This document shows, in pieces, positions 462-18,001 of a DNA stretch of 18,552 bases (the first letter of the stretch is position 1; every line of letters starts with the position of its first letter). Made by a program: the position numbers and the translations under genes. Location of the stretch: assembly GCA_029838195.1 (NCBI GenBank), contig JALGVJ010000056.1:1-18552 (forward strand), in the 5' to 3' direction. Source of the stretch: Promethearchaeota archaeon (GTDB taxonomy: Archaea; Asgardarchaeota; Lokiarchaeia; Sigyniarchaeales; SOKP01). The notes below the pieces were generated by a model. That model was given only the letters and a program-made list of their open reading frames with translations, was not told the origin of the DNA and did not search any database.

Positions 462-884
462 TTATAGGGGTTCTTTTTGGAGAAAATAGATCCTATTAGA
501 GGCACATTTAGGACATACGGGTTGTTTTTCTGCTTGTTTATTAGCAGAGGCCATTTCGTCTTCCCATTCTGCTCCACATTTCAAGCATCCATATCCCACG
601 AAACCTTTTTTATAGAATATTTCTCCGCCATGCACGCGAATGGGTTTTCCTTCCATTAAAGCTTGGGTGGTTTTTTTATGGGCTCTTTCGAGGATTCGGG
701 AAAAGGTAGGTTGAGAGATCCCCATTTTTTCAGCCGCCTCTTTTTGATTTAGATCGAGATAATGCTTTAATCTCATGGCTTCGAATTCAGCGACGGTAAG
801 AATAACAGAATTGTCGATAATATCATTAAAATAAAAGTTTCTTGGGGTTTCTTTTACCCAGCGCCGGCGAACACGTCTTCCCAT
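462..884 (-). CDS. DUF134/UPF0251 family DNA-binding protein with C-terminal Zn/Fe ribbon
   Basis: MGRRVRRRWV start; LTVAEFEAMRLKHYLDLNQKEAAEKMGISQPTFSRILERAHKK HTH typical of DUF134; C-terminal CLKC...CPKC. ATG at 884 preferred over TTG at 887. Confidence 0.85.
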   Translation of the reverse strand: MGRRVRRRWVKETPRNFYFNDIIDNSVILTVAEFEAMRLKHYLDLNQKEAAEKMGISQPTFSRILERAHKKTTQALMEGKPIRVHGGEIFYKKGFVGYGCLKCGAEWEDEMASANKQAEKQPVCPKCASNRIYFLQKEPL

Positions 885-1051
885 CAAGAATCACATGCAT
901 GAAATTGAATAAATTTTTTTTACTATATATTCAAAAAAAATAAATAAAAAAAGATTAATGATTCTGAGAATACTCTTTGCTTGCCATGAACATGATTTTA
1001 GTTGGTTCTCACCGGTGTATTCAAGGGGGAGCATTGAGAAGCGAATATCAA

Positions 1052-2113: not shown

Positions 2114-3418
2114 TTAATGAGTGGCACAAGAAACACAAGGATCAAAACATCTAATGATTTTCTGTGATTCTTCTTTAATCATATTGAGATCTCCCGTTTT
2201 TTCATACAATTCTTTAGAAACGTTGGTAATCATGGTATCAATGAGTGGTAGATTAAATTCTGTAGCTATAAATAATTTAACTTCTTTAATTATTTTATGT
2301 TCATCAACCTTATAATGATGAATCAATAACCCTCTTGGTGCTTCAAGCACACCTATTCCTTCATTTTTTTTTAGTTTCTTGCAAGATTCAAGGGGTATAT
2401 TTTCATTTAGTACAGGATTTTGAAGATATAATTGAGAAAATTTTACTTCTTTTAACATTTCCATTAATCGAATAATATTTGCAAAGAGAATGTTATTCTT
2501 CCACGTGTCATTAAAAAAACTTAAATAATCAGGAATACCAATAACTACGGAGTTTTCAATTAAATTATTCCTTGCCATCGGTCCTACCAATACAGGATTT
2601 TCTTTATCAAATAAGATATCAAAACCTCGCGTGTAGGGGGTTTTAGTGAAATAAGTGAAGTAATTTTGAGGATGAAAATCGATTGGATCATTATTGAATT
2701 TTTTAATCCTTAAAATCCCATTATATCTATTGTAAGATCCATAATCATGCAAGCTTATCATACTTGTTGGAGGCAATTTATATGCTTCAGGAGGATGTTT
2801 GCTAGAAAATAATTCTACCGTTTTATCTAAGATCCATTCCAAGTTATTTGATGCAATATCCATGTATTTTTGCGCAAGTTTTATTTTCTTGCTTGAAGCT
2901 TTATAAAGGACTCCTCCTGGTATAGGCGTGATTAAATGAATTGACCGCCCACCGAATATTTTATCTAATTGATTTCCGATATTAACTGCTTCTAAAAATT
3001 TATTTGTATAATCAGGAAATTCTTTAAGTATCTCAAAAGGATTTAAAATTCGGTTTTTTATCCCCAAAATCAGTAATAAGTCGGGAAATGCTTGAAAAAT
3101 ATAATGCATGCCATGTGATTTTAACAATTCCCCCGTTAATAATAATTTCCTAAGAACAACGTGCCTTTCATGAAGTTCCGTACCAAACATATCTTCAATG
3201 GCTTTGCAACTTGCAATGGATTGGGACGCATGACATAACCCACAAATACGCGAAACTATTTTGGGTATTTCTAAAAGTGGTTTTCCCACGAGAAAAGATT
3301 CAAATCCTCTATAGATAGGTAAATCAAAGATAACGCGATTTACTTCATCATCCTTGAGATAAATCTTCACGTTTCCATGACCTTCAATTCTTGTACATGT
3401 TTCAACAACTTTAATCAT
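2114..3418 (-). CDS. mvhA: [NiFe]-hydrogenase large subunit, group 3 (MvhA-like), atypical: CxxCxxxQ and no C-terminal extension
   Basis: TRIEGHG, RGFE, RICGLC, GGRSIH..PGG, VGPMAR, EAPRGLLIHHY, DPCVSCATH-stop. ATG at 3418 has GGTGA upstream and overlaps the small-subunit stop, so it is preferred over 3430. Confidence 0.88.
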   Translation of the reverse strand: MIKVVETCTRIEGHGNVKIYLKDDEVNRVIFDLPIYRGFESFLVGKPLLEIPKIVSRICGLCHASQSIASCKAIEDMFGTELHERHVVLRKLLLTGELLKSHGMHYIFQAFPDLLLILGIKNRILNPFEILKEFPDYTNKFLEAVNIGNQLDKIFGGRSIHLITPIPGGVLYKASSKKIKLAQKYMDIASNNLEWILDKTVELFSSKHPPEAYKLPPTSMISLHDYGSYNRYNGILRIKKFNNDPIDFHPQNYFTYFTKTPYTRGFDILFDKENPVLVGPMARNNLIENSVVIGIPDYLSFFNDTWKNNILFANIIRLMEMLKEVKFSQLYLQNPVLNENIPLESCKKLKKNEGIGVLEAPRGLLIHHYKVDEHKIIKEVKLFIATEFNLPLIDTMITNVSKELYEKTGDLNMIKEESQKIIRCFDPCVSCATH

Positions 3419-4184
3419 TATAAATATCACCTAATAATTTTGGTTTTGAAAATCGATAAAAAAGGCCTCTATTTTTTGTCAAGTTTTCAGAAAGATTTAA
3501 TATACTCAAAAAATTAATGAGATTGGATGTAAATTCTTTTGAAACTGGTCCCATGCACCCCTCGCACGGCACACCACACTTAATGCATTCAAGGTCGCAC
3601 CCTTCACGCGTAATAGGTCCCAAGCATAATAATCCCCGTTTTAAAAAACATGTTGGCTCATTTTCAGTAACATTTACATTTAGATCTTCCAAGAAAGCCT
3701 CAATAATCTGGTATTCGTAATTCTTATCCATTTTATCTCTTAATGGACAAGTTGCACACAAATTTCTATTTCCTAATACAATTTCTTTCCCCTCAATTAA
3801 ATGAATAATACTATTTCCTAATAATTGAGAAGGAGGAGGGCATCCTGGAATTATTCCGTTGATTTCAACATAAGTAGATAAAGGATCTGCTTGTTTTTGA
3901 TTGGATAAACTTAAAATTCCTCCAAATGCGGCACAAGTACCTAATGCGTATAATTTTTTTGCATGATGTCGAATCTTTTTTAAAATAGAAACTTGCGTCT
4001 CCTCCGATATACATCCCTCTATTAAAGCAATATCACAATCTTTAATTTTAGTTTCATCCATAATGAAAGGAGAATAAGTAAGCGAGATTTTTTCTAAGAA
4101 TTGAGAAAAAATATCTAAGCAAATAAGTGCTGAGATGCACCCGCTGCAAGATGTTAGTGATGTGATGAGAACCTTAGGCATCAT
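3411..4184 (-). CDS. mvhG: [NiFe]-hydrogenase small Fe-S subunit (MvhG-like)
   Basis: SCSGC, IEG, GTCAAFGGI, IPGCPP, CATC, CFLKRGLLCLGPITREGC...CGVPCEGCMGP; GAGGAGGAG RBS; overlaps both neighbouring genes. Confidence 0.88.
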   Translation of the reverse strand: MMPKVLITSLTSCSGCISALICLDIFSQFLEKISLTYSPFIMDETKIKDCDIALIEGCISEETQVSILKKIRHHAKKLYALGTCAAFGGILSLSNQKQADPLSTYVEINGIIPGCPPPSQLLGNSIIHLIEGKEIVLGNRNLCATCPLRDKMDKNYEYQIIEAFLEDLNVNVTENEPTCFLKRGLLCLGPITREGCDLECIKCGVPCEGCMGPVSKEFTSNLINFLSILNLSENLTKNRGLFYRFSKPKLLGDIYND

Positions 4185-6723
4185 ATTTTATCTCCTCCTC
4201 CAATTGTTCATAAAAATCATTTATAACTTTAGCAAAGATATTGCCTTCCACCGCGTTCATTTGTCTTAAAAGAATACGATTTTTGTACCTTTCTCCCAAT
4301 ATTTCTTTTAATAATTTAATCTTTTTACCTATTTTTTCCACCCCATCTATATATCTACACGCCGAACGCCGACATCCAACGATTAATACACCATCAAAAC
4401 CAGCCTCTAAAGATCTCAAGATGAAATGGGTATCCACCCTTCCCGTACAAGGTACCTTAATAATAAAAACATTTGGATGATACCATAATTTTTTATATCC
4501 AGCATCATCTGCTGCAGCATATCCGCAGGATTTACAGCAAAAAGCGATGATTTTTGGTCGGGATTTATATTTAGAAAAAATATCTATTGAACTTATTATT
4601 TTAGAGGAGGTATCTATATTCATCTCTAGAGCATTCGTGGGACAAATTGAAACGCATGTTCCACATCCCTTGCATTTGAATTTGTCCAAATTAATCTTGT
4701 CATGATCCATTGTAATCGCATTATATGGACATGAAACCACGCAAAGACCACATAACCCACATTTTTCCTCTTCTATTTCAATTCCACTAAATTCTGCATC
4801 TAAAAAATCTTGAGATAAAAGAGCAATGATTTTAAGGGCTGCCTGATTTGCCGATGCCTCCGTACTATGATAATCTAAAGGGCCGAGCACGCTTCCAATT
4901 CCGTATATTCCCGAGGCGAGAGTTTCTTTACTCATGAATCCATCATCATTTAGAGTAAAATCCATGATTTTTCGAAAAGATTTAAGATCTTTATTCGGAA
5001 CCATATTAGTATTCAATATAATTAAATCACTCTGATACTCTCCCTCATCAGTTTTTATAATTTTTTCATTATAGCGTTCAATAATCTCTAATTGGTTAAC
5101 GTAATGTACTCGTGAATCTATAGGCGTTAAATAAAAATTGCGAGTACTCTCCAGCTTGTTTATTTCATAAAATATATTGATTTTCGCATCAGGGAGCCTC
5201 CCAGAAATGCTGTTCATATATTTTAGCACTAAAATATCATTAAATCGGGATGAGCCTTTCTTTCCCCCCACTCCTTGTATAATAGATATGGATTTAGGAG
5301 GCTTTTTATCCGATAGTTTGATTATCTGACCTTCGGTGGGACCATCTGAAGCCAAAAGACGTTCAAATTCCCATGAAGTAATAATATCATTGAGAGGATC
5401 ATGTTTATAGGTTTCTAAATCTAAGGGAAACTCTGCACCTATAGCAATTACTTTGGCACCAACATTAATTTTAAATTTTTCTTCCTTCTGATCCAAGTTT
5501 ATGGCTTTATTAATACATGCTCGTTCACAGATTCGGCATTTAAGACAATTCTTTATATCTTCTTCATCGATTAGAGGCACATAGGGATAGGAATGAATAA
5601 AGGGAATATAAATAACTTTTCGATTAGATAATCCAAATTCATATTGATCAGGTTTCTCAATTGAACAAATATTCATGCAACTCCCACAACCAGTACATTT
5701 TTTCTTATCCACGTAGCGCGGTTTTTTCAAGAGATAAATGGAGAAATTTCCTACTTCTCCCGTGATATTCGTTACAACGGTATTGGTATAGATTTTAATA
5801 TTTTTTTCTTTTGCCAATTCAGCAATCAATTCTGAGATAAAACAGATAGAGCAATCCCCCATTTCATGAATTCTATTCCAGCGAGCTACTTTGCCTCCTA
5901 ACGTGGGAGATTTCTCAATGAGGTGGACTTCTATCCCTGCCCTGGATAAATCCAGAGCCAAAATGATTCCGGCAATGCCACCTCCAATTATGGCACAGCT
6001 TTTCTGAATTTCTACTCTTTTAATTTTAACACTTTTTTGTAAGACTACTCTTTCTACGGCAGCTTCTATTAAAAGTTTAGCTTTTTCTAATATTTTTAAC
6101 GGATCTCTTTTTTTTACATCGTAATGATGTACCCATGCGCATTGCTCACGGATGTTAGCTATTTCAATATTCACGCTATCAATAACATCCTTGAATATTC
6201 TTTCAAAAAGTACTTGATGGGTTTTGGGGGAGCACGCTACTATGACAATCTTGTTTAGATAGTTATCTTTAACCCATTGTGAAATTTCATCAATATTTTT
6301 CTGTTGACAAAGATTTTTAAATATTTTAACAGAAATGACATGGTTTAATTTACTAACATAATTTTCTAAAAGCTCTACATTAATTGCTTTAGAAATTTCG
6401 GTATTGCAATTACAGATGATAACGCCGACTCGATTTATTTCACTTCCCTTAGAAGGTATATATTCATCAATATCTTCTCCCGAAAGGATCCGTTTATTGA
6501 GGCTCAAGATTTTTAATATTCTTTTACCATCTTCCGTGAGAAAATAGTGCTTGTTGTCTTTATTAATCAAGGAGCCCAATTTTTTTAAATGAAAGTTTAA
6601 CTGGCCCGTAGAGTCAACTCCCAATTTTTCCATTAAATCTGAATAAGAAATATATCCCTCTTTCTCTAAATACTGCAAAATTTTCCGGCGAAAAGGATGG
6701 GATAATACCGAATATATATCCAA
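4174..6723 (-). CDS. hdrA: Winged-HTH (ArsR-like) - HdrA - MvhD triple fusion
   Basis: aa ~1-80: LSHPFRRKILQYL...YSDLMEKLGVDSTGQLNFHLKKL...YFLTEDG (wHTH). HdrA: VGVIICNC, VACSP, ANIREQCAWVH, IIGGGIAG (FAD), DCSIC, four CxxCxxCxxxC ferredoxin motifs. C-terminal MvhD: AFCCKSCGYAAAD, VPCTGRVD, DGVLIVGC...C. TTG start with AAGGAG upstream. Confidence 0.9.
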   Translation of the reverse strand: MDIYSVLSHPFRRKILQYLEKEGYISYSDLMEKLGVDSTGQLNFHLKKLGSLINKDNKHYFLTEDGKRILKILSLNKRILSGEDIDEYIPSKGSEINRVGVIICNCNTEISKAINVELLENYVSKLNHVISVKIFKNLCQQKNIDEISQWVKDNYLNKIVIVACSPKTHQVLFERIFKDVIDSVNIEIANIREQCAWVHHYDVKKRDPLKILEKAKLLIEAAVERVVLQKSVKIKRVEIQKSCAIIGGGIAGIILALDLSRAGIEVHLIEKSPTLGGKVARWNRIHEMGDCSICFISELIAELAKEKNIKIYTNTVVTNITGEVGNFSIYLLKKPRYVDKKKCTGCGSCMNICSIEKPDQYEFGLSNRKVIYIPFIHSYPYVPLIDEEDIKNCLKCRICERACINKAINLDQKEEKFKINVGAKVIAIGAEFPLDLETYKHDPLNDIITSWEFERLLASDGPTEGQIIKLSDKKPPKSISIIQGVGGKKGSSRFNDILVLKYMNSISGRLPDAKINIFYEINKLESTRNFYLTPIDSRVHYVNQLEIIERYNEKIIKTDEGEYQSDLIILNTNMVPNKDLKSFRKIMDFTLNDDGFMSKETLASGIYGIGSVLGPLDYHSTEASANQAALKIIALLSQDFLDAEFSGIEIEEEKCGLCGLCVVSCPYNAITMDHDKINLDKFKCKGCGTCVSICPTNALEMNIDTSSKIISSIDIFSKYKSRPKIIAFCCKSCGYAAADDAGYKKLWYHPNVFIIKVPCTGRVDTHFILRSLEAGFDGVLIVGCRRSACRYIDGVEKIGKKIKLLKEILGERYKNRILLRQMNAVEGNIFAKVINDFYEQLEEEIKYDA

Positions 6724-6808
6724 TTTTAATTCTCAACTCCTTGAGAACCTTTATGATTAGTGAATATTAAAACTGCATTCACAAAAAAAACAATTTTATT
6801 TTTCTTCA

Positions 6809-6826
6809 TGATAAACATTATTATCA
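6809..6826. promoter_or_regulatory. Palindromic operator TGATAA-N6-TTATCA upstream of the wHTH-hdrA-mvhD gene
   Basis: TGATAA acatta TTATCA, a perfect 6-bp inverted repeat ~85 nt upstream of the TTG at 6723; the same motif occurs at 6942 and 12031. Confidence 0.7.
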
Positions 6827-6941
6827 AAAAATAAAAATCTTTTTATTGAAAATGGTCACCTAGATTATTGATTTCAAAAAACTGATAGTAGAAATCGAAA
6901 TAGCATCATTTAAGACAAGTCATCTGATTTTTATTGGAGAT

Positions 6942-6983
6942 TGACAATTCTTCTTGTCATAATAATCATAATTTTTCTTATCA
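6942..6983. promoter_or_regulatory. Tandem operators upstream of the divergent operon
   Basis: TGACAA ttcttc TTGTCA (6942-6959, perfect) and TCATAA tttttc TTATCA (6966-6983, one mismatch), offset by 24 bp. Confidence 0.7.
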
Positions 6984-7068
6984 AATTTTTTTTATTTTAC
7001 TTATCCCGTTTTCCTCTTGGTAGATATTTTTAATTAAAAAGGAACTGAACTTCGAGGTGGTAAAATAA

Positions 7069-7686
7069 ATGGAAGTATTAGAATTAAAGCCTTTAAAAAA
7101 TAAAAAGATAACAGCTTATTTCTTCTCAAAACAAAGTTCAGCAGATCTTAATGAAATCAATTCAGATGAGCTAAAAAAATTTCTTAAAGAAAAAAATGTG
7201 GACTTTGCAACCATAGATTTCGATGTAGATATGAAAGATTTTAACAATAATGAATTTGCGAAGACTCTTATCAAGTGTAATATCCCATATTATCAAGTAG
7301 ATATCCCTGAATTCGTAATGGGTTATTTATATGAGGAAATCATTGAAAAGGAAGAGTTAGTTGAGGAATTGATCCAAGAATATCAATCCATGGAAGATAA
7401 GGAGTCTTATAAGGGATTGAGTCTAAAAAATTGGATCGACATGCTTAATCTTGAAATACAAGAAAAGGAAAATTTTCTTAGTTTACGGTTGAGACCCCAA
7501 TGGATCGTGAAAAAAATGTTAGATCTTGCGAAAAAAATAGATAAACAGGTAGTTACATTTATTCATTTTGTCAAAAAGGATATATGCGAAGATATTTGTT
7601 CTCAAGTAATTGAATGCTTAAGGGAGATGGGAGTTAAGGTAATAGATTATAATAAAATTCATACAATTAAAAATATAATTTTATAA
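7069..7686 (+). CDS. Hypothetical protein, degenerate paralog of 7714..8457 (possible TraB/Tiki-like fold with coiled-coil insert)
   Basis: 205 aa ORF with GAGGTGG RBS; shares EVLELKPLK, DFA, NIPx...DI and RxxW...LxLAK with the next gene. Confidence 0.7.
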   Translation: MEVLELKPLKNKKITAYFFSKQSSADLNEINSDELKKFLKEKNVDFATIDFDVDMKDFNNNEFAKTLIKCNIPYYQVDIPEFVMGYLYEEIIEKEELVEELIQEYQSMEDKESYKGLSLKNWIDMLNLEIQEKENFLSLRLRPQWIVKKMLDLAKKIDKQVVTFIHFVKKDICEDICSQVIECLREMGVKVIDYNKIHTIKNIIL

Positions 7687-7713
7687 TAAAATTAAAAAGG
7701 AGGTATGATAAAA

Positions 7714-8457
7714 ATGCCAGAAGTTTTAGAATTAAAGCCTTTAAAAGAGAAGGTTTTGAAATTAATCCTCATAGAAAGTGAATTTCCCATTGATTGGTGG
7801 TTTGAGGTACCTGAAGAATTAAAGGAGGATTTGGTATGGAATTTGCATTTGATTTCAAGAGAGTATCTAGATTTAATCGAAAATCTTATAGAAAAATATA
7901 AGCCTGATTTTGCCTTAGAAGAACGTCCAAATTATCTTAATCGTAATGAAAAGGATCCCTTGAAAGTTTTATTTCAAGTTAAAAATATTCCATTTAAACA
8001 TGCAGATATTGATGAAAATGCAGAAGACTATCTTTCTGCTGCTTTAGAGGAACATAGGCAAATATTAGAGAAATTAGAGGAGAGAATAGCAGAAATAATC
8101 AAAAAAAATGGAAAAGCTCCCACAGAAGATGAGGAATTTCAGCGATTGCTCATATGGAAAGAATATTTAAAAAAGGATTATGAGGATCAAGAAGATGAAG
8201 TAAGATATAAGGTTCGAGAAGCTTGGATGATGATGAATATTTTAAATTTGGCTAAAGATGTGGGAAAAAAAGTGGAAAGCAAAAAATTAAAGGGATTTTT
8301 CATCTGTGATAAGAGACATTTTGATGGATTAGATGCCTTGGCAGAATCTCTGGGAGTTGAAACGGAAAAAATTAAGATCAAAAAGAGCATAAAAACGGAA
8401 GAGATTGAAAAAGTCATGGAAAAAGAGATTGAAGTAAAAATCCGAGATAAAGAATAA
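7714..8457 (+). CDS. Hypothetical protein, possible TraB/Tiki (EreA/ChaN-like) fold
   Basis: GGAGGT abuts ATG 7705, so ATG 7714 (MPEVLELKPLK) is the better start. PDFALEE, ADID, REAWM and ICDKRHFDGL resemble the TraB-type PDxVxxE / RxxxM / GxxHxxG pattern. Fold call is tentative. Confidence 0.65.
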   Translation: MPEVLELKPLKEKVLKLILIESEFPIDWWFEVPEELKEDLVWNLHLISREYLDLIENLIEKYKPDFALEERPNYLNRNEKDPLKVLFQVKNIPFKHADIDENAEDYLSAALEEHRQILEKLEERIAEIIKKNGKAPTEDEEFQRLLIWKEYLKKDYEDQEDEVRYKVREAWMMMNILNLAKDVGKKVESKKLKGFFICDKRHFDGLDALAESLGVETEKIKIKKSIKTEEIEKVMEKEIEVKIRDKE

Positions 8458-8522
8458 ATTAGAGTTTTTTCTTAATTTTCAATTTTATCATGAAATTTTA
8501 AATTATTGAGGTGAATGTAAAA

Positions 8523-9512
8523 ATGGCAAAATATAATGAAGTAGAACAAATTTTAGGAAGAAAATCAATTTTAGAGCTAACACCAATCGTGATTAAAAAA
8601 AAGGATACCTCCGATAAGATCTGTTATTTTCTCGATACTGATGATGTAGCCTCCCCATTTGACATAAACATGGCATACGATGCGGGGTTTGATGTAGTAG
8701 TGCCCATTAGTAAAATGAAGGCTGAATTTGTTCCTAAAATAGTACAAGATGCAATTTTTTCTCGAAAACCAGGAGCGCCTACCACATTTTTCATAGGAGG
8801 ATCTGATGTTAAAGAAGGTGAAAAAATTGCGAAAAATGTCGTTAAATCGTTAGTTCCACCATTCGAATGCCCGGTCATTATTGATCCACGAGGATCTCAC
8901 ACGACCGCCTCAGCAGTAGTAGCCATGACCTTAGATATCGCAAAAAGAAAGCATGGAATAACTGATGTGAAAAATAAAAAAGTGGTAATTTTTGGAGCGG
9001 GGCCTGTAGGAAGAATTGCTGCAATTTTGGCAGCAAAAATTCATTTAAATACTTTTCTCGTTGAAACTTGGGAAAAAACCAGTGAGGAATTCATTATCAA
9101 TTTAGCTAAAGAATTAACGGAAGAAGCGGGAGATGGTTCCTCGCAAATTAAAGGCGTATTCGCACCTAGTTTAGAGGAAAGATTTCAAATCTCTCAAGAT
9201 GCTGATTTCATATGGTCGCTAGCAGCAGCAGGCGTCGAAATTTTACCTGAGGAATTAATGGCCAAATTAAAAGGTAAAAAGCTGGTTGTAGATATTAATT
9301 TGGTTCCCCCATATGGCATTGGAGGCATAAAACCAAAGTATAAAAATGAGGAAATTTATCCCGGAATTTTCGCAATAGGAGCTCTAAGCTTAGGAAGGCT
9401 AAAAGCAAACTCCGAAGCCGCCATCTTGAAAGAAGCGGCTAACACTAAAGGTCTAAAAATATTTGATTATAATGTCGCTTTTGAAATTGCGAAAGAATTA
9501 TTGAAAAAATAA
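8523..9512 (+). CDS. NAD(P)-dependent methylene-tetrahydromethanopterin/tetrahydrofolate dehydrogenase (MtdA/MtdB/MtdC family)
   Basis: SPFDINMAYDAGFD, VQDAIFSR, FIGGSD, PPFE..DPRGSHTTASA, GAGPVG, DINLVPPYGIGG are characteristic of the family. ATG 8523 lies downstream of GAGGTG. Confidence 0.85.
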   Translation: MAKYNEVEQILGRKSILELTPIVIKKKDTSDKICYFLDTDDVASPFDINMAYDAGFDVVVPISKMKAEFVPKIVQDAIFSRKPGAPTTFFIGGSDVKEGEKIAKNVVKSLVPPFECPVIIDPRGSHTTASAVVAMTLDIAKRKHGITDVKNKKVVIFGAGPVGRIAAILAAKIHLNTFLVETWEKTSEEFIINLAKELTEEAGDGSSQIKGVFAPSLEERFQISQDADFIWSLAAAGVEILPEELMAKLKGKKLVVDINLVPPYGIGGIKPKYKNEEIYPGIFAIGALSLGRLKANSEAAILKEAANTKGLKIFDYNVAFEIAKELLKK

Positions 9513-9525
9513 AATTTTAAATCAG

Positions 9526-9540
9526 TTTTTTTTATTTTTT
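9526..9540 (+). terminator. Oligo-T archaeal-type terminator after the mtd-like gene
   Basis: TTTTTTTTATTTTTT shortly after stop 9512. Similar T-tracts follow 12411, 15941 and 18001. Confidence 0.4.
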
Positions 9541-9588
9541 AGTTTTACATTTAATTTTATGTTTATTTTAAAAAAAAGAGGAGGAAAT

Positions 9589-11880
9589 TTGGTGATTTTC
9601 AAAAATAATAAGAACTTTTCCTTGCCTCAAGGAATTAAGCTCAGAATTAAAGATTCATTTAAGGATGACGCAGGTAAAGGAATTGTGAGATTAGATCCTG
9701 AAATAATGGTAAAATTAAATTTAAAATCAGGTGATATTATTGAAATCAAACATTCTAAAAACAATACCAAAACAGCAGCTTTACTCTTAACGGGTAGAAA
9801 TGAAGATCGAGGCAAGCATATATTACGAATGGATCCTTCTGAGCGGAATAATATTATTGCATCTATCGATGATTATGTTGAAATTCGAAAAATAGAAGCA
9901 CCTCTTGCAGAAAAAGTCATCCTAACTGGTTTAGAAAGCACGTATTTAATAAGAGATTCTCAATATTTAGTAAGAAAATTAGAGAAGAGAGCAATTACTA
10001 TGGGAGATCGTCTGAGCTTTTATGTCATGGGGCGTAGAGTTGATTTAATGGTAATAGATTATCAGCCAAAGGCGGAAGCGGTAAAAATTACATTGGATAC
10101 TGAAATCTCTTTTACAGAAAAAAAAGAAATCGAATTAAAGCGAAAATCGATTTCTCGATTTAAATATGAAGCAATAAGTGACATTGAACAAGAAATGCAT
10201 AAGATGGCAAAAAGGATAACTTATGAGGATATCGGAGGTTTAGGGGAGCAAATTGAAAAGATTAGAGAAATGATTGAACTACCCTTGCTTCATCCTGAAT
10301 TATTTGAAAAAATTGGTATTAATCCCCCTAAAGGAGTATTACTCTATGGTCCCCCAGGAACAGGAAAGACTTTATTGGCAAGAGCTGTAGCATATGAAAC
10401 AGATGCACATTTTATTTCAATTAGTGGCCCTGAAATAATGAGTAAGTTTTTTGGCCAGAGTGAAGAAAATTTAAGAAAAATATTTGAAGAAGCAAAAGAA
10501 AAAGCCCCTTCCATTATATTTTTTGATGAGATTGATTCGATTGCAAGTAAACAAGATAATGGTCGAAGTCAAGTCGAAGCAAGAGTTGTAGCTCAATTAT
10601 TATCCTTAATGGATGGATTAGAGAAGCGAGGAAAAGTAATCATTATTGGAGCAACTAATAAGCTTAATCAAATAGATATTGCATTAAGGCGTCCCGGGCG
10701 GTTTGATCGGGAAATTGAAATTGGAGTTCCTGATGCTGCAGGTCGTTATGAAATTCTCTTAATCCATACAAGAGGCATGCCCTTAAATCCTGATGTTAAT
10801 CTTAAATTGTTAGCTGAAAAAACTCATGGATTTGTAGGAGCTGATATAAAAGCATTGGCTAAAGAGGCCGCCATGCTAGCCATTAAGGATATATTTCCTC
10901 ATATTGATTTAGAAAAACCCATTCCTAAAGAAATATTAAATCGTATTGAAATCAATATGAATCATTTTTTAATCGCCCTAGCTTCAATAGAGCCCTCTGC
11001 CTTGAGAGAAGTTCTCATTACCAAACCCAATGAGACTTGGGAGGATATTGGAGGGTTGCAGGAAGCAAAGCAACAACTAAGAGAAATTATCGAATGGCCA
11101 TTAAAATTCCCAGAATTTTTTGCTTACATGAAAGCAGAACCACCTAATGGAATTCTTTTATATGGGCCTCCTGGCACGGGAAAAACATTGCTTGCAAAGG
11201 CAATAGCAAATGAAACGGAGGCAAATTTTATTTCAGTAAAAGGTCCTGAATTCTTATCCAAGTGGGTTGGAGAAAGTGCTAAGGCAGTAAGGGAGATCTT
11301 TCGAAAAGCCCGCACAGTCCGTCCTTGTATTATTTTCTTTGATGAAATCGACGCCATAGCCACTAAAAGAAGTATAGAAAGTAGCACCAAGGTTGTGGAA
11401 CAGATGGTTGCTCAATTATTAACGGAGATGGATGGCCTGGAGGAACTTAAAGATGTAATATTGATTGCTGCGACTAATAGACCCGATATGTTAGATCCGG
11501 CGCTATTAAGAGCAGGGCGTTTTGGAAGACATATTGAAATCCCCTTACCTCATAAAGAATCTAGAAAAGAAATCTTTAAAATTCACTTAGAAGGAAAACC
11601 TTTAGATCCAGAAATTAATTTAGAAGAATTAGCAGAAAAAAGTGAAGGATATTCAGGGGCGGACATTAAAAGTATCTGTGAAGAGGCTACCATATTTGCC
11701 ATTAGAAGAGGGATATTTGATGATAAGATAGATAAAAAAGATCCCAGTTCCTTTAAGCAAGTGAAAATAAATAATTCTGATTTTACCAAAGCTTTTGAAA
11801 AGATAAAGGTTTCAATTTTAAGAGCTAAAAAAATTTATGAAGATCAATTGAAGGGAGCATCCGAACAACTCTATGGTTAA
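9589..11880 (+). CDS. cdc48: CDC48/p97/VAT-family AAA+ ATPase with C-terminal HbYX motif
   Basis: N domain ([10 protein letters not shown]), two AAA modules with [23 protein letters not shown] / RAGRFGR; ends LYG. GAGGAGG at ~9578-9584 suggests TTG 9589 or GTG 9592 rather than ATG 9559. Confidence 0.93.
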
Positions 11881-12030
11881 ATATTTTCTAATTTTTATCT
11901 CCTTATTTTTTCCTTATAATTTATTGGGTCGTTATATCAATTAAATTCATTATTATAAGGTTCAAATCATTCTAAAGGAATTCATTGTGCATTTTATTTC
12001 ATAACACAATATTTGTTAAACTAAAAGATT

Positions 12031-12072
12031 TGACAAATTGAATTATCAGAATGATCAAAATTCTTCTTATCA
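12031..12072. promoter_or_regulatory. Tandem operators upstream of the 86-aa gene
   Basis: TGACAA attgaa TTATCA (12031-12048) and TCAAAA ttcttc TTATCA (12055-12072), with the same 24-bp offset as 6942/6966. Confidence 0.65.
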
Positions 12073-12150
12073 AATTTATTTTATTTTATCAATTTCATCT
12101 TTTACTTAGAATTAAAAAAATTATAAAAATTAAAAAAAGGTGGTAAAAAA

Positions 12151-12411
12151 ATGCAAGCTTTTGCTCATGTCCCCGAGGAAAGGGAAAAAATAACTTCATA
12201 TAAAAGTATGATAGAAACAAAAAATAAAGAATCTAAGAAACAATTCTTAAAAGAATTGGCAAAAGGATATTTAGAAGCTGAAAAAATGAAAGTAATGGAA
12301 ACATTTAGAATGTTTGAAAAAGAATATGAAAGTCTTGAGAATAAAGACTCCTTTAAAGCTCAATACCTTGAATCTTTTATTTTTGAGCTTAAAACAGAGC
12401 TCCATCTCTAA
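12151..12411 (+). CDS. Small helical protein homologous to the coiled-coil segment of 7069..7686
   Basis: AGGTGG RBS and T-tract after the stop; 17/50 ungapped identities (hand count) with EFVMGYL...LNLEI of 7069..7686. Confidence 0.75.
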   Translation: MQAFAHVPEEREKITSYKSMIETKNKESKKQFLKELAKGYLEAEKMKVMETFRMFEKEYESLENKDSFKAQYLESFIFELKTELHL

Positions 12412-12871: not shown

Positions 12872-14200
12872 TTAAGGTTTTAAATCGTTTTCTGATTTCA
12901 TAACCGACTCGGATTCTTTTCTGGAAAGTTTAAATTCATAATCAGTCGGTGATAATAAGAAAAATCCTACCAGCCCCAGATTAGAAATGAGTGCCATGAA
13001 GAGAAATACCATGAGATAAGAAGCCGTCAGTGATAAAATTACCCCTGTTAATGCAAGTCCGATTACCCCTCCAAGGTTCGCAAAAGCGTTCGTGAGACTA
13101 TAATAAGTGGAATCCATTGCAGGATGCTGCTTGGAAATCTCCGTCACCACTGCTGCATAACTACTATGGCGCCAGCCGATAGCTAAGCCAATTAGTGAGG
13201 CAAAAAACAATAAAACACCCCAAATGGTCGGAATTAACATCAATAAAAGAGATATGGTAGTAATCGCATAAGCTAAATACACGCTTAGCCTCCTACTTTT
13301 CTTGTCAGCCACTTGCCCTCCCACAATTGCTCCAATAACTATTCCAACGGATATAATCATGGTCATGTTTCCTTGGTATAAATATACAATGGGATCTGTT
13401 GTAGTCAAAGAAAGGCTGGTTCCAATAGAGGAAATCAACCCAATTTGAATGAGCAAGAATAAGGTAACAAATAAAATCACCACGGAATCCACTATGGCCG
13501 CAAATAATGAAAAAATGTACGTCTTAAAATCGCGTTTATTATTAAACATCTCTTTTAAATGAATCATTAACATTACTTCGGGATATTGTTTCGGCTCTTT
13601 AATGAAAATGGTTAATAAAGAGCTCGCAATCATTAAAATCCCAATGATAATGAAAAGAGATGGCACATTCAACCCACCATAGACGACCAAAATGGCCAAA
13701 ACTGGACCTCCAGCAATTGCTCCTACGCTTCTTAGCCCCCAATTAAAACCTGACGCCCGACCTAGTTTCTCTTTCGGGCAAATATCTAAAAGCAAACCGT
13801 CGATAATAGTGTCTGAGAATGCAACTCCGGTGAAAATTAGAATGCCCATGACGGTAAAAACGGTAATAGCGTTCTCTTTATTGAATAAATTTGGGGTTCC
13901 AAGTAATGCCCACATGACACCGGCCATGGACATCATACCAATGATCCAAGGGCGCCGTCGTCCAATTTTTTTCGATCCTACTTTATCTCCGATAATTCCA
14001 AAAAACACTTTAAAAATCCACGGGAGACCAATTATAGATCCTAAAAAAGCCAACGCAGCAGCATCCAGCACGCCGATATATTGAATGAGATAAATGGGAA
14101 TGATAACAGCAAATAAACTCTGATCAATGCCCTGAAATAAGTAATTGGAAGAGAAAATTGCGATATAATAATTTTTAAACTCTACTTGCTCTTTTTCCAA
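12872..14200 (-). CDS. MFS transporter (AmpG/BT1-like motifs), paralog 1
   Basis: ~12 hydrophobic segments; PWIFKVFFGIIGDK...GRRRPW, SDTIIDG, GGQVADKKSRR; TTG start. Confidence 0.88.
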   Translation of the reverse strand: MEKEQVEFKNYYIAIFSSNYLFQGIDQSLFAVIIPIYLIQYIGVLDAAALAFLGSIIGLPWIFKVFFGIIGDKVGSKKIGRRRPWIIGMMSMAGVMWALLGTPNLFNKENAITVFTVMGILIFTGVAFSDTIIDGLLLDICPKEKLGRASGFNWGLRSVGAIAGGPVLAILVVYGGLNVPSLFIIIGILMIASSLLTIFIKEPKQYPEVMLMIHLKEMFNNKRDFKTYIFSLFAAIVDSVVILFVTLFLLIQIGLISSIGTSLSLTTTDPIVYLYQGNMTMIISVGIVIGAIVGGQVADKKSRRLSVYLAYAITTISLLLMLIPTIWGVLLFFASLIGLAIGWRHSSYAAVVTEISKQHPAMDSTYYSLTNAFANLGGVIGLALTGVILSLTASYLMVFLFMALISNLGLVGFFLLSPTDYEFKLSRKESESVMKSENDLKP

Positions 14201-14600: not shown

Positions 14601-15941
14601 ATGAATAAAACAAATGTTGAATATAAATCGCTTTATACGGGTGTTTTCTCCTTGAATTACTTCGTGCAAGGAATAAACCAGTCCATTTTCACGACCGTTG
14701 TCCCCATTTATATCTTGAACTTACTGGGTGTAGTAGATACCGTTGCCATTGCTTCCATGGGCTCGATCATCATGATTCCCTTTGTCCTCAAGCTTATATT
14801 TGGACTGATCTCCGATAAAGTAGAAATCGGGAAGCTTGGACGAAGAAAGCCCTGGATCATTGGTGCTACGAATTTTGCGGGAATCATGTGGTTAATTTTA
14901 CCTCCAATTCTATTTTCAAATCCTTGGGCCGCATATAGCATCTTTACACTTGTTGGATTTTTTGTCATGTTTGGTACGGCCTTCTCAGATACATCAATGG
15001 ATGGTTTTATCATGGATATTTGCCCTAAAAACTTGTTGGGACGCGTGACAGGAGCCGTATGGGGTTTTAGGAGCATGGGAATCATTACAGGGGGATTGGT
15101 CATCTTATTACTAATTAATATCATTCCCGTTGAGACGATTTTCATTTTTTTAGGAATCATTACTATCATATTTGGATGGTTAATCTTATTGATTAAACAT
15201 GGAGAAACCATGAAAGACAGGGAAATTCTTTCGAATCTGAAAATAATATTTAAGCGAAAAGAAAATTGGAAGGTTTTTTTCTTTTCGATGTTCATGGCAG
15301 TTGTGGATGGAGTCATTTTCCTTTTTATTGCATTATATATTTTAATTCGAGCCGGGCTTGTTAATCCCGTGGGCGCCACCATAGAGATCTTGGATGAAGA
15401 TTTGAATCTATATTATCCGCAAGCTTTCATCACTTTAATCGTTAGTTTAGGAGTGTTAGCGGGTGCTTTCATTGGAGGGCGGGTTGCTGATAAAGTATCG
15501 AGAAGAGTAGCGACGTTTTCATCTTTCATTCTTACCACAAGCGCTTTATTATTGCTATTAATCCCCGTGCCTTCGAATCTAGTTTTCATTTTATTAATCT
15601 TCACGTTTATCGCGGGCTCATCAAGCGGCTGGAGCAATTCTGCATTTTCTTCGATTTCGGGAGAATATGCACAGCAATATCCGGAGGCTCCGGGAACTTA
15701 TTTATCACTATGTACTTCATTCATCAATTTTGGCACCTTGATGGGGCTATCTTTTACAGCACAGATTTTTAGTACGGCTTCAACGCTTTTCATAGATGTA
15801 TTGGCAATATATGCGACAGTTTTTATTTTCATGGCCTTTCTTTCCAACATTGCTATTATACCTTTCTTGACCTTAGATAAACATCAATACGAATACAAGC
15901 TAAGGGAGGAAAGTTCCATAAAGGAAATGTTAAAGCCTTAA
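14601..15941 (+). CDS. MFS transporter, paralog 2
   Basis: PFVLKLIFGLISDK...GRRKPW, SDTSMDG, GGRVADKVSRR. Confidence 0.88.
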   Translation: MNKTNVEYKSLYTGVFSLNYFVQGINQSIFTTVVPIYILNLLGVVDTVAIASMGSIIMIPFVLKLIFGLISDKVEIGKLGRRKPWIIGATNFAGIMWLILPPILFSNPWAAYSIFTLVGFFVMFGTAFSDTSMDGFIMDICPKNLLGRVTGAVWGFRSMGIITGGLVILLLINIIPVETIFIFLGIITIIFGWLILLIKHGETMKDREILSNLKIIFKRKENWKVFFFSMFMAVVDGVIFLFIALYILIRAGLVNPVGATIEILDEDLNLYYPQAFITLIVSLGVLAGAFIGGRVADKVSRRVATFSSFILTTSALLLLLIPVPSNLVFILLIFTFIAGSSSGWSNSAFSSISGEYAQQYPEAPGTYLSLCTSFINFGTLMGLSFTAQIFSTASTLFIDVLAIYATVFIFMAFLSNIAIIPFLTLDKHQYEYKLREESSIKEMLKP

Positions 15942-16314: not shown

Positions 16315-16662
16315 ATGGGATATAAAATTTTTATTCTGAAAGATGAAAATGGTGCGAGAGTTGATATGGAAATCTTTTTTTCTCTTCCGCTTGAATTAGT
16401 TCTTGCTCCCTTCGTAGATGAATTGCATGAGTTACATGAATGGAAACCGGACATGACCAGAACGATGCTATTTTTACCCATTTCAATGATGGAGGCCATC
16501 CTATATGCCAGATTTCATGAGAACATGTCCAATCGGGCATTTAGAATTATTTTTATGATAATTCATGACATTTTTAAAAAATCAGAGGAAAAAAAAAACT
16601 TAAATTCAATCCATATAAATGTAGATCATCGAGTCAAAATTGAATATTATTTGGGAACGTGA
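16315..16662 (+). CDS. Hypothetical protein or transposase N-terminal remnant
   Basis: 115 aa ORF whose stop lies 1 nt before the MFS3 ATG. FLPISMMEAILYARFHENMSNRAF loosely resembles IS5/IS1182-type N-terminal helices. Confidence 0.35.
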   Translation: MGYKIFILKDENGARVDMEIFFSLPLELVLAPFVDELHELHEWKPDMTRTMLFLPISMMEAILYARFHENMSNRAFRIIFMIIHDIFKKSEEKKNLNSIHINVDHRVKIEYYLGT

Positions 16663-16663
16663 A

Positions 16664-18001
16664 ATGATACGAGAGGAATACGAATATAAAAATTCTTATA
16701 CCTTGATATTTGGATTGCTTTATTTAACACAAGGGATAATTCATTCTACGTTTGCTAGCTTGGTGCCGATCTACATCTTAACTCTCCTTGGGTCAGTCGA
16801 AGCCGCTGATGTAGCTAATTTAGGTACGATTGTAATGCTCCCGTTTATTTGCAAATTAATCATGGGGATATTAACGGACAAGATTGGTACTCAGAAACTC
16901 GGTAGACGCAAGCCTTGGATTATTGGTTCAACACTATTTGCCGGCATTAGTTGGTTTTTCATTCCTTCCTTAGTTTTGGCAAATCCGCAAGCTGCATTTT
17001 TAATTTTTAGTCTGGCGGGATTAATCATCATGTCGGGCGTGGCAATGAGCGATACGGCGATGGATGGATATATTCTCGATACATGTCCTCCATGGAAATT
17101 GGGAACCGTGAATGGAACGTGTTGGGGCGCTCGTTCGCTTGGAGTCATTGTAGGGGGGCCTGCGATTTTACTATTTGTAGGGGTAACTGATCAAATTTTA
17201 GTGGTATTTTATTTATTGGGCATTTTAACGATTTTATTTGGGCTTATAACCCTATGCATAGAAACACCAAAAGAATACGAGAAAATGCAAATTGTAGAAC
17301 ATTTAAAAATAATTGTAAAATCCAGGGAAAACTGGAAAGTGTTTGCCTTCTCATTTTTCATGGCAATAACTGACGGTGTAGTATTCATTTTTCTGGCGTT
17401 ATACGTATTGATTAGAGCAGGATTGGTGAATCCAATAGGAGCAACCATAAATTTATTGGATGAAGATGTGAACTTATTCGAGCCGCAAGCATTCATTACT
17501 CTTATTACAGGGTTGGGGATTTTAATTGGGTCCATAGTTAATGGAAAAATAGCAGATGTAAAATCGAGGCGCATGGCAGTAGGGGGAGCATTGATATTTA
17601 AATCCGTTTCGTTACTCATAATTCTTTTACCTGTACCAATAATAGTACTATTAATTTTAGCATTATTAGTGGGCATATCAAGTGGCTTTAGCACGGCGTC
17701 ATATTTTGCTGTCGCAACGCAATATTCAAAGAAATATCCGGAAAGCACCAGCACGTATTTCTCGATTAGCTTATCATTCATCAATTTGGGCACGATCTTA
17801 GGCATTTCATTAACGGGCATGATATTTAGGAACATCACGACGTTTACACAAGATACCTTTTTAATATATGCAGTGGTGTTCATCTCGATAATAATTTTGA
17901 ACGATCTTGCCATTTTTCCATTTTTATTGATGAAAAGAGAGAATTATGAAGTTCCAAAAGGAGAACAAGGCTCCGAATTTCGAGAGTTAATTAAACCATA
18001 A
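16664..18001 (+). CDS. MFS transporter, paralog 3
   Basis: PFICKLIMGILTDK...GRRKPW, SDTAMDG; shares ALYxLIRAGLVNPxGATI..LDEDxNL..PQAFITLI with paralog 2. ATG 16664 preferred by alignment with the paralogs. Confidence 0.88.
   Translation: MIREEYEYKNSYTLIFGLLYLTQGIIHSTFASLVPIYILTLLGSVEAADVANLGTIVMLPFICKLIMGILTDKIGTQKLGRRKPWIIGSTLFAGISWFFIPSLVLANPQAAFLIFSLAGLIIMSGVAMSDTAMDGYILDTCPPWKLGTVNGTCWGARSLGVIVGGPAILLFVGVTDQILVVFYLLGILTILFGLITLCIETPKEYEKMQIVEHLKIIVKSRENWKVFAFSFFMAITDGVVFIFLALYVLIRAGLVNPIGATINLLDEDVNLFEPQAFITLITGLGILIGSIVNGKIADVKSRRMAVGGALIFKSVSLLIILLPVPIIVLLILALLVGISSGFSTASYFAVATQYSKKYPESTSTYFSISLSFINLGTILGISLTGMIFRNITTFTQDTFLIYAVVFISIIILNDLAIFPFLLMKRENYEVPKGEQGSEFRELIKP

Follow-up and report, generated by a model that had tools for sequence, protein, structure and literature searches.

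The MvhAGD-HdrABC complex of methanogens is normally an electron-bifurcating metabolic enzyme, and the Mvh-Hdr complexes whose structures are solved dimerise through HdrA. The H2 sensors known to us are all bacterial and signal through kinase cascades; HoxBC of Cupriavidus necator (group 2b; HupUV in Rhodobacter) does so via the kinase HoxJ and the regulator HoxA, and such regulatory hydrogenases have very low H2 turnover and are insensitive to O2. PutA of E. coli and Salmonella is a trigger enzyme, a flavoenzyme with an N-terminal DNA-binding domain that is switched by membrane binding. H2 transfer between partners is central to ideas on the Asgard lifestyle and the origin of eukaryotes, and we know of no account of how Asgard archaea sense H2. 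Here, we analyzed a stretch of 18,552 nucleotides (the window) from a Promethearchaeota archaeon (assembly GCA_029838195.1, contig JALGVJ010000056.1), in which a winged helix is fused to the HdrA-MvhD part of a cytoplasmic-type [NiFe] hydrogenase. The source genome is of the Asgard (Promethearchaeota) type and comprises 4.5 Mb in 94 contigs, with a completeness of 96.6%. Judging from its sequence, the complex probably couples gene expression directly to H2 or redox state, without a kinase.

The fusion gene (4174-6723, minus strand) is a single open reading frame (ORF) of 849 aa with a TTG start. It is followed by an MvhG/VhuG-like small-subunit gene (3411-4184, minus strand; 257 aa, Pfam Oxidored_q6) and a group-3c-like [NiFe] large-subunit gene (2114-3430, minus strand; 438 aa, with a likely ATG start at 3418). 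The fusion and small-subunit genes overlap by 11 nt (4174-4184), and the two hydrogenase subunit genes share 3411-3430, or 8 nt given the ATG start. This operon has a 345-bp spacer in common with a divergent plus-strand operon, which encodes o205, o250, an MtdA-like protein and a CDC48-type ATPase and is followed by a small gene, o86. In the 849-aa protein, Pfam placed DUF7347, HTH_24 and HTH_20 at residues 2-71, FlpD/MvhD at residues 725-843 and, between them, flavin adenine dinucleotide (FAD)/Rossmann and ferredoxin motifs. Residues 97-703 align to HdrA (5ODC_A, E 8e-108) and residues 722-842 to MvhD (5ODC_D, E 7e-23). A Pfam domain search of the window proteins found no CCG/HdrB domain, no HdrC and no HycI-type maturation protease; the window contains no histidine kinase or response regulator, and hdrB/hdrC partner genes are absent within 8 kb in 25 related loci. 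These results agree with an earlier note on this DNA, made from the sequence alone, which had described an ArsR-like winged helix in frame with HdrA-MvhD (the domains all lie on one ORF), translational coupling of mvhG and mvhA (genes overlap at both junctions), the lack of hdrB, hdrC and a maturation protease from the window, and a signal path free of a kinase.

All parts of the complex find their best sequence matches in MvhAGD-HdrABC (M. wolfeii 5ODC; M. marburgensis 9SW2). The Asgard complex differs from it in its added N-terminal winged helix, the fusion of HdrA with MvhD, the loss of the ligands of the HA4 cluster, a locus without hdrBC, a Gln in place of a His in the L1 motif of the large subunit, and the absence of a C-terminal tail. 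The order of the HdrA-MvhD fusion is identical in HdrA2 of Methanosarcina, but HdrA2 has no winged helix, keeps HA4 and partners with HdrB2C2. Its model (NF040770) is the closest NCBIfam match to our fusion protein, at 593 bits against a cutoff of 1100. The parts of the complex generally score far under the Mvh/Hdr family cutoffs; this includes the small subunit, for which VhuG is the best NCBIfam match and whose cluster Cys are conserved across the family.

Compared with M. wolfeii HdrA (5ODC), the fusion protein keeps the N-domain Cys, the GGGxAG loop for FAD, the DCSxC motif and, in the inserted and C-terminal ferredoxin domains, all sixteen Cys; the MvhD cluster is present as well. All four Cys of the CVGSRD..CSxxCC motif (HA4) are replaced: at residues 483-500 (5224-5277, minus strand), where the ligands of this [4Fe-4S] cluster were lost, the canonical IQCVGSRD..YCSxxCC reads IQGVGGKK..SSRFNDIL. 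The protein therefore lacks the full set of six [4Fe-4S] clusters of HdrA, with the other motifs present, and the core is degenerate, as previously suggested, in this one respect. HA4 is the high-potential electron route from FAD to HdrB (PMC13580544).

The large subunit aligns end to end with MvhA (best solved match 5ODC_F, E 1e-51), and all four Ni-Fe Cys are present (RICGLC, DPCVSC). It has the two CxxC Ni-Fe motifs of group 3c, but neither the RxCGxCxxxH pattern nor a cleavable C-terminal extension. The L1 motif reads RICGLCHASQ, in which Gln (codon 3221-3223) replaces the His of canonical MvhA, and the protein stops at DPCVSCATH, where MvhA runs 25 residues further. The L1 Gln (PMC5665086) and the tail-less large subunit (PMC8229454) are hallmarks of regulatory hydrogenases. 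Both coincide with C. necator HoxC (from the megaplasmid gene hoxC) in a direct alignment, which upholds the reading of this subunit as sensor-type: the aligned columns of HoxC read RVCGICSVSQ, the Asgard Gln aligns with Gln67, and each protein ends at the His of Cys-x-x-Cys-x-x-His. The overall identity is only 22% and the match to MvhA is much stronger, so the likeness to HoxC is convergent, and the Asgard subunit shares these two features with group 2b but not its HoxC/HupV kinship or its kinase signalling. HoxBC and the Asgard system are both proposed to report H2 to transcription. In the group-3c-like Asgard system, which has no kinase or response regulator, the signal would instead run via MvhD and HdrA to a DNA-binding domain of the same polypeptide.

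That domain is an ArsR-type winged helix at residues 1-80 (6484-6723, minus strand; Pfam DUF7347, E 6e-13), followed by a disordered tether of ~15 residues (6439-6483, minus strand). Its N-terminus, MDIYS..HPxRRKIL, is kept in all relatives, which indicates that the TTG start is right. Among solved structures, the putative ArsR repressor 1Y0U comes closest (E 1e-3). The AlphaFold (AF2) model of the whole protein, with a predicted local distance difference test (pLDDT) score of 83, has the winged-helix topology a1-a2-a3-aR-wing-a5; residues 82-94 fall below pLDDT 50 and are predicted to be disordered, which suggests that the winged helix sits on a flexible tether. The part of the domain that varies least across families is the recognition helix, TGQLNFHLKKL. 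A profile search with the domain returned 2382 proteins, the majority of which come from archaea, are 100-350 aa long, carry the domain at the N-terminus and also match the ArsR models HTH_5 and HTH_20. The Asgard domain resembles ArsR/SmtB-type and DUF7347 regulators (e.g. 1Y0U) in its Pfam matches, its predicted fold and a palindrome at its own promoter; it differs from ArsR/SmtB regulators in having no metal-sensing site and in being fused to a 770-aa flavo-iron-sulfur protein. A two-copy complex prediction of the winged helix alone scored 0.27.

The palindrome, TGAYAA-N6-TTRTCA, occurs exactly at 6809, 6942 and 12031, against 0.01 copies expected in shuffles, and a fourth copy with one mismatch lies at 6966. 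The candidate operator beside the fusion gene (6809-6826, TGATAA-N6-TTATCA) abuts an A/T-rich TATA-like run on its fusion-gene side, and its position is conserved in a promoter alignment of close relatives. The tandem candidate operators O1 (6942-6959, exact) and O2 (6966-6983, one mismatch) have centres 24 bp apart and lie directly upstream of the TATA-like run (6984-7001) of the operon that begins at 7069. The same tandem spacing occurs in L061 and L065 (L-numbers denote fetched loci, G-numbers genomes and f-numbers families, with f1 the family of the window genome). Behind the third exact candidate operator (12031-12048) come a second, degenerate site and then a TATA-like run, in the layout seen at 6942-7001, and a site is found in the equivalent position after cdc48 in L067 (exact) and L068 (one mismatch). 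In close relatives, promoters are laid out as a perfect site, a second site at +24 bp that keeps at least the right half-site, and then an A/T-rich TATA-like run; the o86 promoter shows the identical layout.

Over the whole 4.5-Mb genome, we counted nine exact copies, compared with 2-6 expected under a Markov model. The six copies outside the window were considered as regulon members and treated as chance occurrences: five are inside ORFs, and one is ~500 nt from two genes that match no informative family. At 26 loci (452 kb), all 25 exact sites are intergenic, and nearly all lie <400 nt upstream of the fusion gene, an frhB-like gene before the fusion, o205, o250-Mtd or o86. In most related loci, the motif stands 47-260 nt upstream of the fusion gene, either exactly or with one mismatch, and there is hardly a further copy in the 18 kb; the operator recurs at equivalent promoters in relatives down to 38% protein identity. 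Families f14 and f9 have a second operator in the gap between the large-subunit gene and a fused o250-Mtd gene.

As controls, we used o250-Mtd loci that lack the fusion, namely those of families f10, f15, f2 and f28 and of one genome (G228) from the window genome's own family. None has a site within 5 kb on either side, even with one mismatch allowed. G099 was considered as a counter-example, with palindromes but no fusion, and was dismissed, as the first 13 residues of the fusion are present at its contig edge. An all-versus-all comparison of neighbour genes found no other conserved DNA-binding protein beside the loci. Taken together, the control loci, the explanation of G099 and the lack of another conserved DNA-binding protein indicate that the operator travels with the winged helix. 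The fusion protein thus combines a predicted winged-helix fold and recognition helix with a palindromic operator at its own promoter that is conserved in orthologues, as a transcription factor of the winged helix-turn-helix (wHTH) class would. The earlier note had proposed a palindrome common to the three promoters, and an operator and regulon belonging to the complex; the first is exact at all three positions, and the second, as a sequence-level prediction of a small local regulon, now has strong comparative-genomic backing. The window also encodes a DUF134 protein (462-887, minus strand), a putative regulator with a C-terminal zinc ribbon located downstream of the gene for an epimerase dependent on nicotinamide adenine dinucleotide (NAD). 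It was rejected as an alternative regulator of these promoters because it has no conserved counterpart next to the operon at any of the related loci.

A different role for the winged helix is suggested by one f9 lineage. There, the identical wHTH type is either fused in front of o250-Mtd or encoded just ahead of it: L097:4002-5978 (G218) is a wHTH-o250-MtdA-like fusion of 658 aa, and in L098 (G275) a 90-aa wHTH ORF at 6675-6947 directly precedes an o250-MtdA-like gene at 4973-6670. The winged helix is thus tied to the Mtd module even without an attached hydrogenase. Neither L097 nor L098 has a hydrogenase nearby or a TGAYAA-N6-TTRTCA site, and a search for an alternative conserved palindrome in this lineage found none. 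One could therefore suppose that the winged helix joins HdrA to o205, o250 or Mtd, that an unlinked regulator binds the palindromes, and that the hydrogenase is an ordinary metabolic one. Fusion of the wHTH to either HdrA-MvhD or o250-Mtd is a Rosetta-stone pattern compatible with such docking, and in family f18 the winged helix is retained although no operator could be detected. However, the palindromes are found only where the fusion occurs and are absent from the Mtd loci of fusion-less genomes, the neighbouring genes include no other conserved regulator, the domain is a member of an extensive family of wHTH regulators and is most conserved in its recognition helix, and a two-fold operator suits a dimeric carrier. 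We consider this arrangement improbable and, given the control loci, the least likely reading of the locus.

The putative regulon consists of o205, o250, the MtdA-like gene, the CDC48-type gene and o86. The first gene of the divergent operon, o205 (7069-7686, plus strand), is Asgard-only, has no Pfam family and aligns with o250 as its paralogue. The second, o250 (7705-8457, plus strand), is a domain confined to Asgard archaea; other lineages carry it fused to the MtdA-like protein, including in ORFs of ~560 aa in L071, L075 and L077. Its AF2 model has a pLDDT of 82. Foldseek returned no match to this model, VIA-align gave no more than middling Z scores of ~8-9, including ChaN-like and methyltransferase-like halves, and an Atlas search with o250 found only Asgard hypothetical clusters and a weak TraB/GumN lead. 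Next is a homologue of NAD(P)-type methylene-tetrahydromethanopterin/tetrahydrofolate dehydrogenases (8511-9512, plus strand; Pfam Mpt_N), which matches MtdA of M. extorquens (1LU9) over its full length at E 1e-28. The last gene of the operon (9559-11880, plus strand) encodes a paralogue of the CDC48/VCP-type AAA+ ATPases, assigned by Pfam, and it is linked to the operon only in the close relatives L066-L069. The product of o86 (12151-12411, plus strand; 86 aa) is a stand-alone copy of the o205 helical hairpin, with 32% identity over 53 aa, and o86 homologues follow cdc48 in L067-L069. We also observed that a peptide of the form (V/I)LEL(K/T)P(L/I)xxKK starts o205 (7069-7100), o250 (7714-7746) and the N-terminal extension of the MtdA-like protein (8568-8588), and that it recurs behind the winged helix in the fused form in L097.

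An Mtd-like gene is present in every fusion-bearing genome except one, which is 69% complete. In the window genome's family, 50 genomes have both the fusion and Mtd, 5 have Mtd only, none has the fusion only and 13 have neither, which is a pattern and not a test, as related genomes are not independent samples. In f14 and f9, o250 and Mtd form one fused gene, which comes next after the large-subunit gene in the same orientation. The frhB-like gene (FrhB_FdhB_N and C domains with a ferredoxin motif, ~380 aa) is absent from the window and occurs at 10 of the 26 loci, nine of which belong to the window genome's family (L061:10605-11759, L101:123-1289 and eight others). In L061, L062 and G099 at the least, this gene separates the operators from the fusion gene.

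Based on these observations and on the solved Mvh-Hdr complexes, we propose the following mechanism. The three minus-strand genes would form a cytoplasmic, Mvh-type (group 3c) [NiFe] hydrogenase, in which electrons pass from the NiFe site through three small-subunit clusters and the [2Fe-2S] cluster of MvhD to the Fe-S clusters and FAD of HdrA. The chain would end in the protein that carries the winged helix on its flexible tether. We infer that an HdrA dimer presents two winged helices to the two-fold symmetric TGAYAA-N6-TTRTCA, at operators that abut the TATA-like elements of three promoters: that of its own operon, that of the divergent o205-o250-MtdA-like-CDC48 operon, and that of o86. H2, and possibly also reduced ferredoxin via the retained ferredoxin domains, would set the redox state of the Fe-S/FAD chain, which in turn would alter DNA binding by the tethered winged helices. 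Transcription of a small local regulon could then track H2 or reductant supply without a kinase, whichever sign the regulation may have. PutA serves as a working analogy, since it too combines a flavin redox enzyme with an N-terminal DNA-binding domain and has its operators in the divergent promoter beside its own gene. It differs in using a ribbon-helix-helix instead of a winged helix and a proline dehydrogenase instead of HdrA, and nothing in the Asgard system suggests a membrane step.

We think it fairly likely that the complex binds its own operators, that an H2-set Fe-S/FAD redox state controls this binding, and that the copy in the window genome is specialised for sensing. The specialisation is suggested by the loss of HA4, the exit to HdrBC, together with the convergence on bacterial H2 sensors in the L1 Gln and the missing tail. 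The other hydrogenase genes of the source genome bear on this point. Pfam searches of the genome (PF00374, PF00346, PF02906) detected only this one large subunit and neither a group 4 nor an [FeFe] hydrogenase. The idea that this is the only hydrogenase in the genome was nevertheless discarded, because tblastn recovered two large-subunit C-termini cut by contig ends (C35:169325-169689 and C34:93537-93732) that the Pfam search had missed. These are [NiFeSe] genes with a VhuA/VhuU-style split and an 8-aa tail, both with selenocysteine encoded by an in-frame TGA in DCULSCAAH, and hdrC (168 aa) and hdrB (~300 aa) come after each of them. The genome also encodes HypD, a HycI-type protease, a canonical F420-type Mtd and, on contig C86, a canonical HdrA-MvhD with HA4. 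Metabolic hydrogenase-Hdr systems thus exist apart from the fusion operon, which answers the earlier note's call to look for a separate canonical mvh/hdr locus with two VhuAU-hdrCB loci. The fusion complex may associate physically with the HdrB and HdrC encoded on C35 and C34. In the same genome, we noted 13 FlpD/MvhD matches, five with in-frame TGA codons, which is consistent with a genome rich in Hdr/Mvh-type selenoproteins.

Proteins with this fusion form a conserved family in Asgard archaea. Searching 5.8 billion proteins, we obtained >120 clusters of ~849 aa with the same domain set (including PF24038) at 62-99% identity, with source labels that include Promethearchaeota, Hod-, Hel-, Thor-, Hermod- and Lokiarchaeota. 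Full-length matches starting at residue 1 or 2 occur in ~70 of 301 sampled Asgard genomes, spread over seven families at 38-70% identity, and the order of fusion, small subunit and large subunit is the same in 25 of 25 fetched loci. An assembly chimera or a one-off fusion, which the earlier note had named as a possible refutation, is rejected on these counts. At the level of reads, a survey of sequencing runs listed no RNA run that contains the sequence, and three hydrothermal-vent DNA runs gave short contigs of low depth, none of which bridges the wHTH-HdrA junction.

The sensor-like traits are distributed unevenly across these families. In f1, the HA4 Cys are lost, L1 has Gln and there is no C-terminal tail. 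Its sister family f3 has also lost the HA4 Cys and has the L1 Gln, with a tail of 9 aa, and f21 has lost the HA4 Cys with an L1 His and a tail of 7-8 aa. Families f14 and f9 keep the HA4 Cys, the L1 His and a tail of 7-13 aa, and f18 keeps the HA4 Cys and the L1 His (KICGFC..H), with an altered end that lacks the terminal His. The expected co-occurrence of the fusion with a Gln-type, tail-less MvhA therefore holds in f1 and fails elsewhere, through the 9-aa tail in f3 and the tailed, His-type subunits in f21, f14 and f9. A quick tree, rooted on the canonical HdrA-MvhD of the source genome and thus on a single long outgroup branch, and not a finished search, separates f14 and f9 from f21, f18 and f1 with f3. 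With the Gln and tail-less pairing limited to f1 and the other subunits His-type or tailed, the likely order is that the DNA-binding fusion and its operator came first, on a complete enzyme, and that HA4 loss, the change of His to Gln and loss of the tail followed toward the window genome. The ancestral state looks like a self-regulating enzyme more than a dedicated sensor, and the window genome's complex probably descends from such an enzyme. The proposal that an Mvh-Hdr module was repurposed as an H2 sensor accordingly stands in part: f1 does have the sensor-like traits, and the fusion probably sat on a complete enzyme at first.

Two further observations concern the margins of this distribution. 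In f18 (L073, L074, L079), the fusions have a changed recognition helix, SGKLNFHLKKM, and large subunits that end in DPCISC(S/T)S.., and the Mtd-like gene and the fusion gene are on different contigs. In the fusion-less f1 genome G228, a remnant resembling large-subunit residues 139-229 lies just after o250-Mtd (L092:4651-4923) with no palindromes, which looks like secondary loss of the system.

Several points weigh against the sensing proposal. No Ni-Fe ligand or FAD motif has been lost, and of the nine other cluster motifs eight are intact; judged by sequence, the complex could therefore still turn over, for example as a ferredoxin-linked H2-evolving enzyme. The frhB-like oxidoreductase gene inside the operon of some close relatives suggests an electron output. 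The full set of HA4 loss, Gln and missing tail is confined to f1, and relatives in f14 and f9 with a like winged helix and operator retain HA4, His and tail. In f18, where the winged helix is kept, we found no recognisable operator and no alternative conserved palindrome. The winged helix may serve the Mtd module and not the hydrogenase. Finally, the related genomes behind these comparisons are not independent samples.

Such points lead to a picture in which catalysis is the main job, the winged helix tunes the complex's own synthesis to flavin redox state in the manner of PutA, and the Gln and missing tail are incidental. H2 might then be made from reduced ferredoxin, the HdrBC branch having gone, or electrons might pass to frhB-like or o250-MtdA-like partners. 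As in a trigger enzyme, a redox enzyme shares one polypeptide with a DNA-binding domain, and candidate operators lie at the locus that encodes it. All catalytic ligands and most cluster ligands are intact, deeper relatives with full HdrA clusters and a His-type, tailed subunit share the winged helix and operator, some genomes have frhB-like genes within the operon, and in f14 and f9 o250-Mtd stands directly behind the large-subunit gene on the same strand. This picture probably describes the ancestral state. For the window genome's complex we consider it unlikely, since a working bifurcating enzyme would not readily be expected to lose HA4 and show both regulatory-hydrogenase hallmarks in one particular family, and two other VhuAU-hdrCB loci serve metabolism. 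Moreover, the o250-Mtd gene of f14 and f9 keeps its own operator despite following the large-subunit gene, which points to regulation and not to simple co-translation.

A more ambitious form of the sensing proposal is that the tethered HdrA-MvhD flavoprotein acts as the transcription factor and receives its electrons from the [NiFe] hydrogenase, making a kinase-free H2 sensor that controls an MtdA-like C1 dehydrogenase module, and that Asgard lineages preserve a stepwise path to it, from a self-regulating bifurcating enzyme (full clusters, His, tail) to a dedicated sensor (HA4 lost, Gln, tail-less). We put this forward tentatively, as a possibility somewhat short of probable.

Full-text literature searches turned up no DNA-binding HdrA and no archaeal H2 sensor of this kind, in line with the earlier suggestion that the system is undescribed, and published Asgard reconstructions mention MvhADG-HdrABC only (PMC7015854). 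If the sensing proposal is correct, this would be the first archaeal H2 sensor and the first hydrogenase electron chain to end in a DNA-binding protein, and HdrA, best known as an electron-bifurcating module, would join the redox-sensing input domains. With only three genes and an 18-bp operator, the system is compact enough to be testable in vitro and is a candidate H2-responsive genetic switch. Since "heterodisulfide reductase subunit A" and "hydrogenase iron-sulfur subunit" are the names that annotation pipelines give to these genes, metabolic reconstructions in which they count as MvhADG-HdrABC may overstate bifurcating capacity.

Beyond o86, the window contains three paralogous major facilitator superfamily transporter genes in a row on alternating strands (12872-14200, minus; 14601-15941, plus; 16640-18001, plus), which are separated by long A/T-rich spacers.

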